This document shows, piece after piece, positions 37,319-53,857 of a stretch of DNA of 64,000 bases. The notes below the pieces were generated by a model. The model did no database searches. It had not been told where the DNA came from and was given only the letters and a program-made list of their open reading frames with translations. The DNA comes from a virus (taxonomy: Duplodnaviria > Caudoviricetes): the IMG/VR virus record IMGVR_UViG_3300028888_000049. One strand, given 5' to 3'. Both the position numbers and the translations under genes were made by a program. Position 1 is the first letter of the stretch. Each line of letters starts with the position of its first letter.

Positions 37319-37371
37319 AATTGCAATCCTTTTTAAAATTAAAACTGTATGTTATAAGATTATACTTTCTA

Positions 37372-37605
37372 AAAAGAAAAAACCCTAAAGACGAATAACA
37401 CAACGCCTATAAAATTAGTAGTGGTCTTAACGTACCCACCATGTAGTTTGCAATCACTAACGCTAGCCGTGACCTTCTAAGTTAGGGTGTGAACATTTTT
37501 AGCAAAATGGATATCACACTTAACCACTCTCGATAATGTACATCATATATAATAACGCCGCGAACGTTATATGACATACTTCTCATATGTTTTCACGAAA
37601 CACAT
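37372..37605 (-). ncRNA. candidate structured ncRNA / 5' leader
   Basis: Early promoter upstream, at least 6 helices with G-U pairs on - strand, ends in U run. Confidence 0.5.
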
Positions 37606-37651
37606 TATTATATATAATATGAAAATTTTAATTTGTAAAGCAGAAAATGAT

Positions 37652-37725
37652 TGGATCGAGAGGATGGGATCGAACCACCATTATAACTGCCAAAAAGTTA
37701 TGTCCTGCCTTTAGACGACTCTCGA
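37652..37725 (-). tRNA. tRNA-Gln(TTG)
   Basis: Cloverleaf; TAACT-TT TTG GC-AGTTA; encoded CCA. Confidence 0.88.
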
Positions 37726-37734
37726 ACAAATACT

Positions 37735-38241
37735 TTATTTATATGTATTATGTTTTAAAATTTCAATAATTGTATCATGTGAAACATTAAATTTTCTACC
37801 TAATCCACGCGTACCAAACTGTTTATCTCTTGGAATATAATTTTTTCGTATCCATTCAACTTGCTTATTTGTTAATTTAGAAGAAGGATGATCTTCGCCT
37901 CTATGAATAGTCACTAAATTATGTTTATATGCATGTATAGTATTTTCAGAATAAGTACACCATTCTAAATTAGTAACAATATTATTTTGTTTATTACCAT
38001 CAATGTGATTAATACATGGTAAATTTTTTTGATTTGGTATAAAAGCTTTAGCTACTAATCTTGATATTTTTATACATTTAGCTTTACCTTTTCTGCCAAA
38101 GGGTTTTAAACAAACCATATGATAACCCATACGTTTATTTAAATAACTTTTTATAATTTTACCAGATCTACCTTTTAATCTACCTAAATTACTAATAAAA
38201 TATCCTGGTATTTCAGTTTCTTTCCATTCTTCTTTTAACAT
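37735..38241 (-). CDS. NUMOD4-HNH homing endonuclease inside tRNA operon
   Basis: EEWK..I.GY.ISNLGR, INHIDGNKQNN...NLEW. Confidence 0.92.
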   Translation of the reverse strand: MLKEEWKETEIPGYFISNLGRLKGRSGKIIKSYLNKRMGYHMVCLKPFGRKGKAKCIKISRLVAKAFIPNQKNLPCINHIDGNKQNNIVTNLEWCTYSENTIHAYKHNLVTIHRGEDHPSSKLTNKQVEWIRKNYIPRDKQFGTRGLGRKFNVSHDTIIEILKHNTYK

Positions 38242-38294
38242 GATATATATAAATTATTCAAATTAATATTTAATTAAAATAAGTATTACTTTTT

Positions 38295-38356
38295 GAGTTA
38301 CATAATTATAAAGAGTGAGCAGGGACCGTATGATGTAATCTCAGTGTATTGCCCAC
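38295..38356 (-). ncRNA. candidate H-type pseudoknot RNA 3' of tRNA-Tyr
   Basis: gtgggca/tgctcac crossing gagattacat/atgtaactc. Confidence 0.35.
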
Positions 38357-38362
38357 ATAAAA

Positions 38363-38449
38363 TGGTGGACGAGGTTTGATTTGCACAAACTCAGCCAAAA
38401 GGCGACGGTTTTACAGACCGTTACAGCTCTCTAACTCTGTCGCTCGTCC
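38363..38449 (-). tRNA. tRNA-Tyr(GTA)
   Basis: ACGGT-CT GTA AA-ACCGT, long variable arm, CCA. Confidence 0.9.
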
Positions 38450-38468
38450 GCTAAAATTAAAGATTTAA

Positions 38469-38544
38469 TCGGGTGACTCGGATTCCAACCGAGATTATTC
38501 ATGTTCCCAATACACGTGCCATAAGCAGATTAGGCGATCACCCG
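38469..38544 (-). tRNA. tRNA-Pro(TGG), CCA not encoded
   Basis: CGGGTGA/TCACCCG-A acceptor; CGTGT-AT TGG GA-ACATG. Confidence 0.88.
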
Positions 38545-38549
38545 ATAAA

Positions 38550-38634
38550 TGGCGGAGTGTCTGAGGGTCGAACTCAGAAGACCTTGCGGTCGGTGGTTTT
38601 CAAGACCACTGCAGTACCATTGTGCCAACACTCC
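38550..38634 (-). tRNA. tRNA-Ser(TGA)
   Basis: GTGGT-CT TGA AA-ACCAC, long variable arm, G73-CCA. Confidence 0.93.
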
Positions 38635-38664
38635 ACCATAGTATTTCATATTTACAATGTGATT

Positions 38665-38699
38665 AAAAAAATATCCACAAAACTTAATCTGCGGATATT
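38665..38699 (-). terminator. attenuator terminator (3:4 hairpin) ahead of tRNA-Ser/Pro/Tyr/Gln
   Basis: aatatccgcaga-ttaagt-tttgtggatatt plus U run; 5' arm also pairs with cggatattttattg. Confidence 0.75.
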
Positions 38700-38736
38700 C
38701 TACTAATATGATGTTAACTACAATAAAATATCCGTA

Positions 38737-38796
38737 TCAGACCATTGATGGTTGATATTGATAAGAGGATTGATATTTCATTACGTTTTTCATCAT
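38737..38796 (-). CDS. leader peptide MMKNVMKYQSSYQYQPSMV (putative tRNA-sensing attenuator)
   Basis: Ten consecutive Tyr/Gln/Ser/Pro codons; directly after class II promoter; followed by alternative hairpins. Confidence 0.75.
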   Translation of the reverse strand: MMKNVMKYQSSYQYQPSMV

Positions 38797-38799
38797 ATT

Positions 38800-38809
38800 A
38801 TTTAGAACT
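38800..38809 (-). promoter_or_regulatory. class II promoter motif AGTTCTAAAT of the tRNA operon
   Basis: Recurrent motif a few nt before the leader ATG. Confidence 0.6.
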
Positions 38810-38884
38810 ACTTTTTTATTTTAAAAGATGTAAATAAAAACTTTTTTAATTATTTTTTTAGAATTATATATAAATCTCCGATAT

Positions 38885-39127
38885 TTAGTTAACGACTCCT
38901 CGGAAGCGGGATATACGAATAATTCATAACGGTTAACTATTTTATTAGTCTTGCTAAAACTAAAACCTTAGAACAAGTTATTCTAACGTAGGAAATGCTA
39001 AAAACTTATCAAAACCATTCCTGTTGGACCGTACTATAAACATATAGAATATAGTAACAGCCCTGTTTTATAATCTGTTATCATCTTCCTACAGACCAAG
39101 GGAGTTATTATCTTTCAATAACAGAGC
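38885..39127 (-). ncRNA. candidate structured ncRNA (about 240 nt)
   Basis: Closing helix actcccttgg/ccgaggagt with at least 5 internal hairpins; no ORF. Confidence 0.5.
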
Positions 39128-39133
39128 AAAATT

Positions 39134-39542: not shown

Positions 39543-39617
39543 TGGTGCCTTCGGCGATGAATCGAACACGCATTGACGGAGTACAAAACCGTTTTCCTAC
39601 CATTGAAAGACGAAGGC
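39543..39617 (-). tRNA. tRNA-Thr(TGT)
   Basis: GCC acceptor start, ACGGT-TT TGT AC-TCCGT (U31-U39 mismatch), CCA. Confidence 0.8.
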
Positions 39618-39704: not shown

Positions 39705-40019
39705 TTTAAGTTTTTGACTGAAGGACTCCTGACTACCTCCAAACTCTTACGCAAATAAGCATATTATTCAGTCACATCCACAAAAGTTAGCTATTCTTTT
39801 GTTTATAAGGATGAGAGGATTGAATACCTCCAAATGGATACAGATATCAGCCTGTCACAATACGGTTTGTCCATTTCTTACGTCACTATAGGTTAGCCGA
39901 CCCATGCTATTTCAACCTTATATTTCTTATTTACTATCGCCTACGCAAACCTTTTCAGATTCCACGTAGCTTCCTTATCTGCTATCAACAGATTATTAGG
40001 AACAAGTCAAAAACTTAAA
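39705..40019 (-). ncRNA. large ornate structured ncRNA, possibly compact GOLLD/ROOL-like
   Basis: Perfect 15-bp terminal helix, about 10 internal helices, GAAA tetraloop, loop pseudoknot; tRNA-adjacent. Confidence 0.65.
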
Positions 40020-40140
40020 AACTTTTGCATATTCACTATTTAAGTAATATATAGAACTATTTTTATTTAAAATAAAATAGAAAAATATATTATTTTTTAT
40101 AACTTTTTAGCATCTATTCCAGAAACGACCGGAGTTTTAG

Positions 40141-40230
40141 AAAAAAGAGAGAGATAAGACGGAGGAACTATTTGACAAATCATTTTAAAATCTTATCTCT
40201 CAATTTTATATCACTACCGACGCGATATGA
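40141..40230 (-). ncRNA. candidate small RNA (two hairpins, CCUCC in loop)
   Basis: Early promoter (40258-40263), hairpins atatcgc/gtgatat and gagagataaga/tcttatctctc plus U run. Confidence 0.45.
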
Positions 40231-42122: not shown

Positions 42123-42667
42123 GAGTATTCGTTCTCTCTATCATGTATTAAACTTCCTAATTCATACCATAATTCATAATTCCATTTTAATTCCGGAATA
42201 TGATGTATTAAATTATTATAGCGATGTTCTATCATATGTATTGCTCTGTTTAAAATTCTAATTTTAGTTTTATCAAAGCAACGATATTCTATACTTCCAT
42301 CTATATGATGTGGTGTTAACCAATTATTTATCCAAGTATAACCGTTTTCTATACCAAAGATTTTATAATCAAGATTTTTAATTGTTTTCATACTAAAATG
42401 ACTAAGTTGACAAGTATAATTACAATCTCTTTTTAACTGTTGAATAAATTGTTTCCATTCTTCATCATTTTCACAAATATTTTTACGTTCACTAAAAGTT
42501 TCTTTAGTAGTTACATATTCAGCAAACGTATTTAGTTTATTACTAAGTATTCTCAGATCAATTTCTTCATCTAAGTAAGGAAAATAACAAAGTTCTGACT
42601 TAAAGTCATAAAATCTAATGTCACAATTTCGTATATTTTCTAAAAATCTAGTAAAATCAATTTTCAT
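42092..42667 (-). CDS. HNH-like protein
   Basis: RDCNYTCQ...HHID...LNRAIH. Confidence 0.5.
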   Translation of the reverse strand: MKIDFTRFLENIRNCDIRFYDFKSELCYFPYLDEEIDLRILSNKLNTFAEYVTTKETFSERKNICENDEEWKQFIQQLKRDCNYTCQLSHFSMKTIKNLDYKIFGIENGYTWINNWLTPHHIDGSIEYRCFDKTKIRILNRAIHMIEHRYNNLIHHIPELKWNYELWYELGSLIHDRENEYSWRKIIQKKR

Positions 42668-44870
42668 CTTTATTTAACTTCGCATAATATAATTCTTTAA
42701 TGTCAATTATTGATAAAGTTTTTAATTTTTCGATATTCATACTTTTCATGAAGTCAACGACTCTTTTAGCTTTATCATTTAATTGATTTTCTGGAATTTG
42801 TTTTTCATTAGTAATTTTGTCTTTAAGACTACGCATCCATTTCCAAAAACGATAATGTTGAGTTTTATATTTAACCATAAAACCTTTAGTATCTTCAAAT
42901 ACCCAACCTTCATATAGAATTAAACTACCCTGAGTATCAGCTTCTACATTTTTATAAAATTCTTTAAATGAATTAAAGTCTTTAATTACATATGATTTTT
43001 TCTTAACTTTTAAATCATATATATCTGCAAAATGAAGTAATTCATCATAAGGCATACGTTTACCTTCAAAAGTATTTTCTACAATATCTAATAAATATAA
43101 ACCATTTTCTTTATAACGTATAATATGTGGATCTTTATCTTGATTAATAACCTCAAAGATTAAAGTACAATTATTATGCTCTAAAAAATTACTCAATAAG
43201 AATTTTGTTTTATTTGGTAATAAATCCCATTGTTCTCTTAAATAACCTGCAAAAGGTCCTTCATTTGTAGATTTTGAAGCAATAAATAATTCATGATTAC
43301 GTTTATCATAAGAAACTAAACCCAAAAATCCATTTTCTTTTTTATAAGCAGTAACAGGAAAGCTAAGAGTATTTTCAAGATTATTTAGTTGAGTTTCAGG
43401 TCTTTCATTAATTGCAAAAAACTTATTATAAGATCTTGCTACAATCTTATCTGTTTGAGTATCGATAAATAAACCTCTAGCCGTTATAGTCAGATCATTC
43501 CATTTAGAATCTAGAAAAGCATCTCTTGTAAAGTTATAGCTAACGATTCCATTTCGTAATACTTTTTTATTAACAAGTTTAGAAGCATTAAGTTGTTGAA
43601 TAAACTCATTATCTGTTGTATAAGGTGATCGTGTTGTAGCTAATACCGGTCTTTCTTTATGAGTATTATTCTTAATGAGATGAATTATAGGTTCTTCTGT
43701 ATCTTTATTTATTTGAAGAATGCGTAAATTACCACCCCATTCAATTTCATCATTAACATTATATATATTATTTGCAACTTTAGTAGGAAGCATTTGAATA
43801 TTTCTATGACCATGTATTAAAACTACATCATCTGGATAAGATTCTTTCCAAGTATTATATATTTTTACAGTATCTTCATAATTACCAACGCCTTTAATTA
43901 ATTCAGAAGTTTTAATCAAACCGTCTGGTAATTTTGGCATACCACCATGTGAAACAAAATAAGTCTTACCATTATAAATGAAATAAGCCATTTGTGAAAG
44001 TCTATTAACTATATTTTGAATAATGCGCTTATCTAAAGTTTTTAATTGAGGTAATGTATTGTCATTAAATTCTTGTGAATCTCCTTTATCAGTCTCAAGA
44101 TATTTAATGAGATTACGATCATGATTGCCAGTTAACAATAATACATTATTATTTTCTTTAGATTTTTCGAGTAAATCATTTAAAAATGTTAATGTTTCAG
44201 CATTTTGTAGACCTCTATCAATATAATCACCTACAAAAATATAAAATGTATCATTACTAAATGTATGTTTATCAAACCATTCTTGTAAAGGTTCAACACA
44301 TCCATGAATATCACCAAATATTACAATCTCATTCCATTTATTAAAGTCATAACATACGTCATATAAAATCTCATGTACATCATTTGGTTTAATAATTTTA
44401 AAACGAGAAGAAGGAGCTTCACAATTACAATAAGATTCATACATTCTATCAATTACAGAATCTGGTACTGTTTTTAACCATTCACGCTTATGATTTCTAT
44501 CAATAAATACTTGTTTATCAATGATATTATTATCTTTATCACGCATAAAATCAACAATATATGCTCTGTATTTATACTTCTCGGCTAATTCTTTATACGG
44601 CTTAAGTGATTTATTATTACAATGAGTAGCATCAACAAAAACTGTTTCACCAGCTTTCATTTTAGTTTCTAGTAATTCAAAAAGAAACTTCCATACTTGT
44701 TTATCCATAGAAGAAGATATTGTTTTATATCCTTCTACATTATATTCTGGACATTGAAACAAAATACGCAAATCATCTGAACTTAATGTATAATGCTTAT
44801 ATCCATTTTCTTCAATCCAAGTACTTTTACCACAAGCAGGTACACCACGTAAAATAAATAAATTTCTCAT
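42657..44870 (-). CDS. trifunctional RNA repair enzyme: polynucleotide kinase + metallophosphoesterase + Rnl1-type RNA ligase
   Basis: GVPACGKST/DAT kinase; GDIHG, GDYIDRG, GNHD phosphatase; ARGLF, KFF, KENG, EGWV, KYK ligase. Confidence 0.9.
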   Translation of the reverse strand: MRNLFILRGVPACGKSTWIEENGYKHYTLSSDDLRILFQCPEYNVEGYKTISSSMDKQVWKFLFELLETKMKAGETVFVDATHCNNKSLKPYKELAEKYKYRAYIVDFMRDKDNNIIDKQVFIDRNHKREWLKTVPDSVIDRMYESYCNCEAPSSRFKIIKPNDVHEILYDVCYDFNKWNEIVIFGDIHGCVEPLQEWFDKHTFSNDTFYIFVGDYIDRGLQNAETLTFLNDLLEKSKENNNVLLLTGNHDRNLIKYLETDKGDSQEFNDNTLPQLKTLDKRIIQNIVNRLSQMAYFIYNGKTYFVSHGGMPKLPDGLIKTSELIKGVGNYEDTVKIYNTWKESYPDDVVLIHGHRNIQMLPTKVANNIYNVNDEIEWGGNLRILQINKDTEEPIIHLIKNNTHKERPVLATTRSPYTTDNEFIQQLNASKLVNKKVLRNGIVSYNFTRDAFLDSKWNDLTITARGLFIDTQTDKIVARSYNKFFAINERPETQLNNLENTLSFPVTAYKKENGFLGLVSYDKRNHELFIASKSTNEGPFAGYLREQWDLLPNKTKFLLSNFLEHNNCTLIFEVINQDKDPHIIRYKENGLYLLDIVENTFEGKRMPYDELLHFADIYDLKVKKKSYVIKDFNSFKEFYKNVEADTQGSLILYEGWVFEDTKGFMVKYKTQHYRFWKWMRSLKDKITNEKQIPENQLNDKAKRVVDFMKSMNIEKLKTLSIIDIKELYYAKLNKDEN

Positions 44871-53605: not shown

Positions 53606-53857
53606 CTACTCTAAACCAACAGCCTTTTCATAAGTAGCAAACAATAACTCTTCTTCTTCACGTTGCTGCTTATTTTTACGGCGCTGCTTGATAACGTGAT
53701 TAATGGCTTTTGGATCAAACCCTGCCGACTTTGCTTCCAACAAAATATCTTTACGATCTTGTTTCATTTCGCCAATTTCATCATCTACACGCTCGATACG
53801 CTCAATGATTGTCTTTAAACGCTTTGAATCCATTCCACCAACTTCAGTTTCTGACAT
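53606..53857 (-). CDS. gapR: GapR/DUF2312 nucleoid-associated protein
   Basis: RLKTIIERIER...KDILLEAKSAGFDPK...R...REEEE...YEKAVG. Confidence 0.88.
   Translation of the reverse strand: MSETEVGGMDSKRLKTIIERIERVDDEIGEMKQDRKDILLEAKSAGFDPKAINHVIKQRRKNKQQREEEELLFATYEKAVGLE

Follow-up and report, generated by a model that had tools for sequence, protein, structure and literature searches.

A predicted multivalent leader-peptide attenuator with tRNA genes as its output in an uncultured jumbo phage

The IMG/VR virus record IMGVR_UViG_3300028888_000049 comes from an uncultured low-GC jumbo phage of the gut, and the 64,000-nucleotide (nt) stretch of it that was analyzed here (hereafter, the window) belongs to a contig of 263 kb (ENA ERZ27257205). 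On the minus strand of the window, a short leader open reading frame (ORF) and a predicted terminator precede a block of four tRNA genes with the specificities Ser, Pro, Tyr and Gln. In a first-pass annotation made from the sequence alone, this leader was proposed to be an attenuator that senses depletion of the same tRNAs. The features that bear on this proposal are listed below in the order of transcription, with positions numbered from the first letter of the window.

38800..38809, minus strand: phage-family promoter motif with the core GTTCTA at 38808-38803; the same motif precedes 10 protein genes of the window and many in relatives
38737..38796, minus strand: leader ORF of 19 codons plus TGA, with a tandem ATG (ATG at 38796, end of TGA at 38737); homologs in the related phages G001-G004
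38746..38775, minus strand: control block, codons 8-17 of the leader (Tyr x3, Gln x3, Ser x3, Pro x1)
38772..38800, minus strand: segment 1, 5' strand of the anti-antiterminator, which pairs with 38732-38704 and buries the AUGs in both the minimum free energy (MFE) and the centroid structure
38735..38757, minus strand: inner hairpin spanning codons 14-20, a possible pause hairpin for RNA polymerase, -5.6 kcal/mol
38721..38734, minus strand: segment 2, 5' strand of the antiterminator, beginning at nt 63 from the AUG
38692..38705, minus strand: 3' strand of the antiterminator, overlapping the 5' arm of the terminator (segment 3)
38665..38701, minus strand: predicted intrinsic terminator (3:4), a 13-14 bp stem with a U tract, from folding
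38550..38634, minus strand: tRNA-Ser(UGA), called by ARAGORN and Rfam
38468..38545, minus strand: tRNA-Pro(UGG), called by ARAGORN and Rfam
38363..38449, minus strand: tRNA-Tyr(GUA) with atypical D and T loops, from manual reading and an anticodon-arm search
37735..38241, minus strand: gene for an HNH endonuclease of 168 amino acids (PF13392), between tRNA-Tyr and tRNA-Gln; absent from the related phage L018
37652..37725, minus strand: tRNA-Gln(UUG), called by ARAGORN and Rfam

All four tRNA genes of the first-pass annotation are present at this locus. Although both ARAGORN and Rfam miss the tRNA-Tyr(GUA) gene in the window, its anticodon arm is perfect and its acceptor stem carries CCA, and ARAGORN does call the near-identical gene of L018. 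Both tRNA-Tyr and tRNA-Pro of the window have altered D/T loops. The HNH gene inside the operon had been left out of the earlier account, and the stretch from the leader to tRNA-Gln showed no further terminator and no GTTCTA promoter.

Direct reading returns the leader ORF with the codon content and the coordinates originally assigned to it, and all ten codons of the control block belong to amino acids of the downstream tRNA genes. Tyr, Gln, Ser and Pro together account for 16.5% of the phage codons, the longest run of these four residues in real proteins of the window is 4, and the control block is the only run of at least 8 in the six frames of the 64 kb. Dinucleotide shuffling of the 266-nt upstream region yielded no run of at least 8 that holds all four residues (0 of 20,000), and shuffling of the 30 nt of the block itself yielded a block made of these residues once in 500,000 trials. 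In the other two frames, the same nucleotides give stops or no match to the tRNA set. The leader ORF of L018 carries two substitutions relative to that of the window; neither alters the peptide, and one disrupts a pair of the inner hairpin. The leader-tRNA match is near-perfect by amino acid and partial by anticodon, with standard wobble by the phage tRNAs covering 8 of the 10 window codons. The sensor would therefore read the pooled decoding rate of host and phage tRNAs.

Ten such units in six related phages were compared, namely those of the window and L018 and two each in G001-G004; the nine units beyond the window thus come from five related rumen or gut phages. L018 (Logan SRR30829485) is the closest relative, about 85% identical to the window, and has the same four anticodons, a replaced tRNA-Ser gene body and no HNH gene. 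G001 and G002 (IMG/VR) were reached via the 42-nt motif described below, and G003 and G004, the DNA polymerases of which are 59-63% identical to that of the window phage, via the class B pattern. Each of G001-G004 has two leader units, both behind the GTTCTA promoter motif. Class A, homologous to the window unit, precedes in these four phages blocks of 9-12 tRNA types (Ser, Thr, Asn, Asp, Glu, Ile, Pro, Tyr and Gln and, variably, Val, Leu and Arg), and class B precedes tRNAs for Ala, Phe, Lys, Met, Cys, Gly, Trp and His. The two classes, with 12 and 8 amino acids, respectively, partition all 20 with zero overlap. The short repeat of the window leader is absent from the homologous leaders, in which frame, tandem ATG, length and correspondence to the tRNAs are nonetheless preserved.

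According to the first-pass annotation, homologous loci that lack the ORF or any codon/tRNA correspondence would speak against the proposal; the ten units show co-variation. In a fixed window of codons 6-17, 10-12 of the 12 codons match the unit's own tRNA block and 0-2 of 12 match the block of the other class. For the eight variable class A amino acids in five lineages, tRNA and codon are both present in 24 cases, the tRNA alone in 4, the codon alone in none, and neither in 12 (Fisher p 3e-7, or 0.002 without the window, for lineages that are related and not independent). Nearly every amino acid of a block is represented in its leader, and where a class A block lacks the tRNA, the codon is likewise absent (12 of 12). 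This co-variation apparently rests on about three concordant events. In the window lineage, the Thr, Asn and Glu tRNAs are located upstream under their own promoters, and the block is devoid of all eight variable amino acids; G001 lacks Val, Leu and Arg both among the tRNAs and in the leader block; and in G004 the place of the G003 tRNA-Val is taken by a decayed tRNA-like relic, with GTA in the G004 leader changed to GAA (Val-to-Glu, by one base). In G003, a CAU tRNA, probably Ile2, occupies the position of tRNA-Ile(UAU) of the others and is unmatched in the leader. A rule at the anticodon level, suggested by the Gly codon GGA with the tRNA anticodon UCC in G001 and G003 and GGC with GCC in G002, was rejected because it fails in G004.

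The placement of the ORF relative to the promoter is also characteristic. In ordinary genes, the ATG is usually found 15-45 nt past the GTTCTA motif and a Shine-Dalgarno (SD) sequence never begins less than 7 nt after it. In the leaders, the ATG is located 6-7 nt past the motif and there is no clear SD sequence (10/10 units), an arrangement that fits a leaderless transcript starting on the AUG. From this spacing, the transcript would start about 7 nt after the GTTCTA core, i.e., at the first AUG, the leader ORF is probably leaderless, and the tandem AUG fits tolerance of start wobble.

Folding of the leader RNA (-41.5 kcal/mol, z = -4.85) recovers the 14-bp antiterminator helix and the hairpin over the last codons that had been proposed, and a terminator that differs from the proposed one in that its stem comprises 13-14 rather than 12 bp, with the U tract borne out. 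The earlier account had overlooked a long 1:2 helix, in which the first 25-29 nt pair with the strand past the stop codon. The 14-bp 2:3 helix, with a 3-bp extension across the stop codon, and the 3:4 helix are equal in energy (-14.9 kcal/mol each) and share segment 3, and the 1:2, 2:3 and 3:4 helices are mutually exclusive. The window terminator is not listed by a consensus terminator scan, probably due to the A/U-rich base of the stem. A 1:2-type helix in the MFE structure, a hairpin at nt ~40-63 from the AUG, and a stem with a U tract are each found in 10/10 units. In their own units, the antiterminator duplexes amount to -13 to -20 kcal/mol despite differing sequences, and the antiterminator strand of the window paired with the arms of other phages yields only -3 to -8 kcal/mol; as far as the compared sequences go, these strands are conserved by pairing, not by sequence.

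To model transcription in progress, the RNA was cut just before the 3' arm of the terminator and the ribosome footprint was held unpaired. In this co-transcriptional truncation model, segment 3 stays sequestered in all units as long as the ribosome has not moved beyond about codon 17 and becomes available at codons 17-19, clearly in class A units and less sharply in class B. When the window RNA is given a leaderless 5' end, the 2:3 helix persists with one ribosome placed at any of codons 8-17 (P 0.76-1.0) and is lost with the ribosome at codons 19-20 (P at most 0.01). The modeled switch point, codons 17-19, coincides with the end of the matched codon block. The 5' strand of the antiterminator starts at nt 58-63 after the first AUG in 10/10 units, and the stop codon ends anywhere at nt 54-78; given this fixed position, the switch is expected to close near codon 18 and not at the stop. 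Thus, the attenuator geometry of the first-pass annotation is borne out in the model, with the masking point moved from the stop codon to codons 18-19; in the modeled units, passage of the ribosome beyond about codon 17 closes the switch irrespective of the position of the stop.

These observations are best compatible with the hypothesis, which we consider very probable on the strength of sequence comparison and folding models, that the unit is a multivalent ribosome-mediated attenuator with tRNA genes as its output and negative feedback on tRNA supply. The phage would, most likely, make these tRNAs only when ribosomes read the matched codons slowly. Transcription from the GTTCTA promoter would start on or adjacent to the AUG, with leaderless translation of the ORF, and RNA polymerase would pause past the inner hairpin until the ribosome reaches about codon 8; if the inner hairpin is indeed a pause site, as its position suggests, the codons from about 8 onward would be those read during the race with the polymerase. 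When Tyr, Gln, Ser and Pro codons are decoded fast, the ribosome would move beyond codons 17-18 and cover segment 2, so that the 3:4 helix forms and transcription ends near 38665. Any slow codon, with the cognate aminoacyl-tRNA scarce, cleaved, under-modified or uncharged, would leave segment 2 free to pair with segment 3, and the polymerase would read into tRNA-Ser, tRNA-Pro, tRNA-Tyr, the HNH gene and tRNA-Gln. The new tRNAs would speed up decoding and re-close the unit, an OR-gated negative feedback on tRNA supply, and, with no ribosome, formation of 1:2 and 3:4 would result in termination. No second promoter is apparent from the terminator to the first tRNA in the window, in L018, in class A of G003 or in any class B unit, and therefore the tRNAs of these units should depend on read-through.

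Several observations weigh against this reading. In the full-length RNA at equilibrium, where segment 4 is present, the terminator wins for most ribosome positions, and equilibrium folding with a single ribosome does not produce a switch, which appears in the truncation model alone; therefore, the switch would depend on co-transcriptional kinetics. Classical attenuators are likewise kinetic. The models are also sensitive to the 5' end, such that with a start 4 nt further upstream the 1:2 helix re-forms behind a single ribosome at codons 16-17, and the naked leaderless RNA slightly prefers 2:3 before segment 4 is made, so that the outcome without translation would be kinetic as well. At the level of codons, UCC, UCU and, in L018, CCC require extended wobble, and the conserved Gln-Pro codons double as a hairpin arm, so their conservation is partly structural. 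The match itself is incomplete: Arg is missing from the G002 leader and Asp from the G004 leader despite the tRNAs, class B of G004 pairs a GGC codon with tRNA-Gly(UCC), and the same leader retains an Ala codon although tRNA-Ala sits behind another promoter. Finally, a sigma70-like promoter is located between the terminator and the tRNAs in class A of G001, G002 and G004, where control would be partial, with the second promoter providing a basal supply.

Among the other explanations, one shares the attenuator mechanism and differs in purpose, namely, that the unit is a counter-defense alarm for anticodon nucleases and other tRNA-destroying defenses. Phage tRNA supply does rescue from retron-Eco7 (tRNA-Tyr) and PrrC (tRNA-Lys), in a manner dependent on promoter strength (PMC11555353), a hypothesis of this kind has been put forward (PMC10264068), a single-chain kinase-phosphoesterase-RNA ligase of the tRNA-repair type is encoded 4 kb from the tRNA island (42657-44870, minus strand), and the altered D/T loops of tRNA-Tyr and tRNA-Pro would fit as well. 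Such an alarm is possible but doubtful given that a translation-dependent sensor fails if a nuclease halts translation before codon 8, and that the division of all 20 amino acids between classes A and B suits a general monitor of supply. Because the two classes cover all the amino acids, the evidence favors general control of tRNA supply over a nuclease-specific alarm, with nuclease attack as one possible trigger; natural triggers may include anticodon nucleases, tRNA decay in a long infection and high demand, and amino-acid starvation would open the switch too, without obvious benefit.

The remaining explanations dispense with sensing of specific tRNAs by codons. In the model, a ribosome at the unmatched codons 2-7 (Lys, Asn, Val and Met) also frees the 2:3 helix, as would be expected of a generic timer of translation speed or infection stage that is opened by any slow ribosome before codon 18 and merely biased by the codon match; a timer could do without codons that follow the tRNA set, where a codon without its tRNA is found in 0 of 12 cases, and the position of the inner hairpin suggests that codons before about 8 are read during the polymerase pause, which makes this explanation improbable. 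Even less credible is an ORF that is there by accident, within a non-coding structured leader or a simple terminator, with an ATCAA-type RNA repeat, e.g., a protein-binding site, as the source of the codon bias. A 5-6 nt repeat does recur in the block as four near-copies, a long hairpin forms at the 5' end, and the region is rich in structured RNAs without an assigned family; nevertheless, homologous leaders devoid of the repeat still keep the frame, tandem ATG, length and tRNA match, the other two frames contain stops or do not match, and the L018 changes are synonymous even at the cost of a hairpin pair. Least likely of all appear to be a functional small protein, for which the partly conserved N-terminal residues (E 0.045) might speak if the peptide sequence did not shift with the tRNA inventory, and a T-box or riboswitch that binds tRNA directly, given the lack of an Rfam match even at E up to 5 and the ~60 nt before the antiterminator, too short for Stem I.

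The proposed attenuator resembles thrL, ilvL (ilvGMEDA), trpL, hisL, pheL and leuL in the presence of a short ORF with control codons, the 1:2, 2:3 and 3:4 alternatives, and an intrinsic terminator before the regulated genes, with the ribosome position deciding the outcome, as described, e.g., for trpL of S. meliloti (PMC6614838). Unlike these attenuators of amino-acid operons, this phage-encoded unit, probably leaderless, has tRNA genes rather than biosynthetic enzymes as its output, and it appears to sense 4 amino acids in the window and 7-12 in relatives, with 1-3 codons each, whereas classical leaders contain runs for 1-3 amino acids. A covariance-model search with the Rfam amino-acid leader families (Trp, His, Thr, Leu and Phe) gave no match at E up to 5, and the genes downstream of the leader are tRNAs and the HNH gene, not the biosynthesis or synthetase genes that follow these families; the unit would work like the Rfam amino-acid leaders but is not a member.

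In the chromosomal pheM attenuator of Escherichia coli pheST, a leader peptide senses charged tRNA and controls the synthetase for one amino acid. The phage unit is similar in that a leader peptide would sense charged tRNA and govern a component of the decoding supply, and differs in that the output is the tRNAs themselves. Mycobacterial polycysteine short ORFs (bioRxiv 10.1101/834739) are leaderless ribosome-stalling sensors, too, but these control translation of the next gene by SD sequestration in response to one amino acid, whereas here a terminator precedes non-coding tRNA genes. T-box riboswitches likewise switch between terminator and antiterminator in response to tRNA status, but they bind tRNA via the Stem I specifier and the antiterminator bulge, neither of which is present here, where there is an ORF instead.

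Phage tRNA supplementation against PARIS, retron-Eco7 and PrrC compensates for lost host tRNA (PMC11464382, PMC11555353), but it is described as expression from a strong promoter with no conditional control reported, whereas a conditional switch is proposed here; the string 'attenuat' occurs nowhere in PMC11555353 or PMC13015707. No description of an attenuator controlling tRNA genes was found in the literature searched, with most subscription papers outside its reach. The unit would combine a known kind of control, attenuation, with a so far undescribed output, tRNA genes. If the reading is true, this would be the first described attenuator the product of which is the sensed tRNA, extending attenuation from amino-acid supply to direct feedback on the tRNA level, and a built-in detector of host tRNA-destroying defenses.

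Why phages carry tRNA genes has been debated for more than 50 years, with codon compensation, host tRNA decay and defense by anticodon nucleases as the proposed reasons (PMC10264068). A shortage-triggered switch would mean that, to the phage, tRNAs are a supplement made on demand, and it makes the question testable, as a leader-reporter would show at which stage of infection, and under which host defense, the decoding of each amino acid becomes limiting. It appears likely that the units together form a self-adjusting circuit in which leaderless ORFs serve as checklists that read the decoding rate of every amino acid of the block, such that a shortage of any one turns the block on; the checklist would be rewritten when tRNA genes are moved or lost, and in relatives two units would span the whole genetic code. 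The leader would then be a compact multivalent sensor of translation stress. Leaders also offer a route to annotation of missed tRNAs, as this one predicted the tRNA-Tyr overlooked by ARAGORN and Rfam.

The phage encodes a DNA polymerase, an NAD ligase, an anaerobic ribonucleotide reductase and a RecA-like recombinase in addition to the RNA ligase mentioned above, and no close cultured relative was found in the phage collection searched. A homolog of GapR (PF10073, 83 amino acids, 53606-53857, minus strand) hints at an alphaproteobacterial host. This link draws on what we take to be the distribution of GapR, together with PMC12185513, and is not proof. Alphaproteobacteria are a group with working trpL attenuators (PMC6614838), and such a host would be in line with an attenuator.

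Searches beyond the ten units returned loci of several other kinds. L016 and L017 have no leader at this site, where a terminator is found with a 3' arm like that of the window; L021 and L019 have a different tRNA block, with the upstream region beyond the contig end; and the relatives found through the 234-amino-acid protein, the RNA ligase and the 122-amino-acid protein are mostly rearranged, with the tRNA block absent. No match in IMG/VR was obtained with the leader and tRNA-Ser as exact patterns or with the control block in back-translated form, and neither thymidylate synthase nor the 234-amino-acid neighbor as a query retrieved loci from that database. A combined promoter-plus-leader pattern gave 7 GTDB matches, none before a tRNA cluster, and one IMG/VR match (L073) without tRNAs, which were taken as chance. 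Another short ORF, of 18 codons, follows a GTTCTA motif directly in G003 (L084:12687-12760, plus strand) and does not precede a called tRNA cluster.

Two further elements are located within the operon.

38649..38660, minus strand: 12-nt motif between the terminator and the first tRNA, kept in all six class A units
38315..38356, minus strand: 42-nt structured element, found at 7 loci, with a 7-bp closing stem

The 12-nt motif is a possible boxA-like Nus/antitermination site that may protect the untranslated tRNA transcript. The 42-nt element, present in the window, L018, L019, L021, L070, L071 and L085, has an invariant core and stem changes on both sides, does not match any Rfam family, and is almost always found directly before tRNA-Gln, from which it is separated in the window by the HNH gene. 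It could be a processing signal or a small ribozyme-like motif.

Among close relatives, tRNA gene bodies are swapped with anticodons and positions kept, namely Ser at L018:4095-4184 and Pro and Gln at L021:1308-1384 and 1708-1781. The anticodon loop of the L019 tRNA-Gln is interrupted by an insert resembling a group I intron, an unusual tRNA-Ser(ACU) is present in L070 (7263-7354), L071 (5811-5902) and L036 (2120-2209), and tRNA-Ile(UAU) is found in many relatives. In the window, 39546-39617 (minus strand) is a tRNA found by Rfam and missed by ARAGORN, which was interpreted as tRNA-Thr(UGU), its anticodon stem being closed by a U-U pair, whereas L018 has a conventional tRNA-Thr at this site; 40090-40160 (minus strand) is a remnant with the middle deleted, at the site where L018 has an intact tRNA-Ile(UAU) (L018:1743-1814).

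The surroundings of the block contain additional structured RNAs, all on the minus strand. One of ~300 nt (39705-40019), with its own GTTCTA promoter, ends immediately upstream of tRNA-Asn; matches at ~69% to about 280 nt of this RNA are found in all Lak megaphages, similar sequence is present in G004, and a part resembles a tRNA acceptor/T arm, with no Rfam match. A 54-nt structured motif just upstream of the leader promoter (38864-38917) is kept in L016, L017 and L018, and in L016, which lacks the leader, it runs directly into the terminator with the 3' arm resembling that of the attenuator. A hairpin-rich insertion of ~230 nt (38920-39130) is present in the window only. After tRNA-Gln, an ORF-free, hairpin-rich stretch of ~300 nt (37330-37640) follows a sigma70-like promoter and is ~90% conserved in many relatives.

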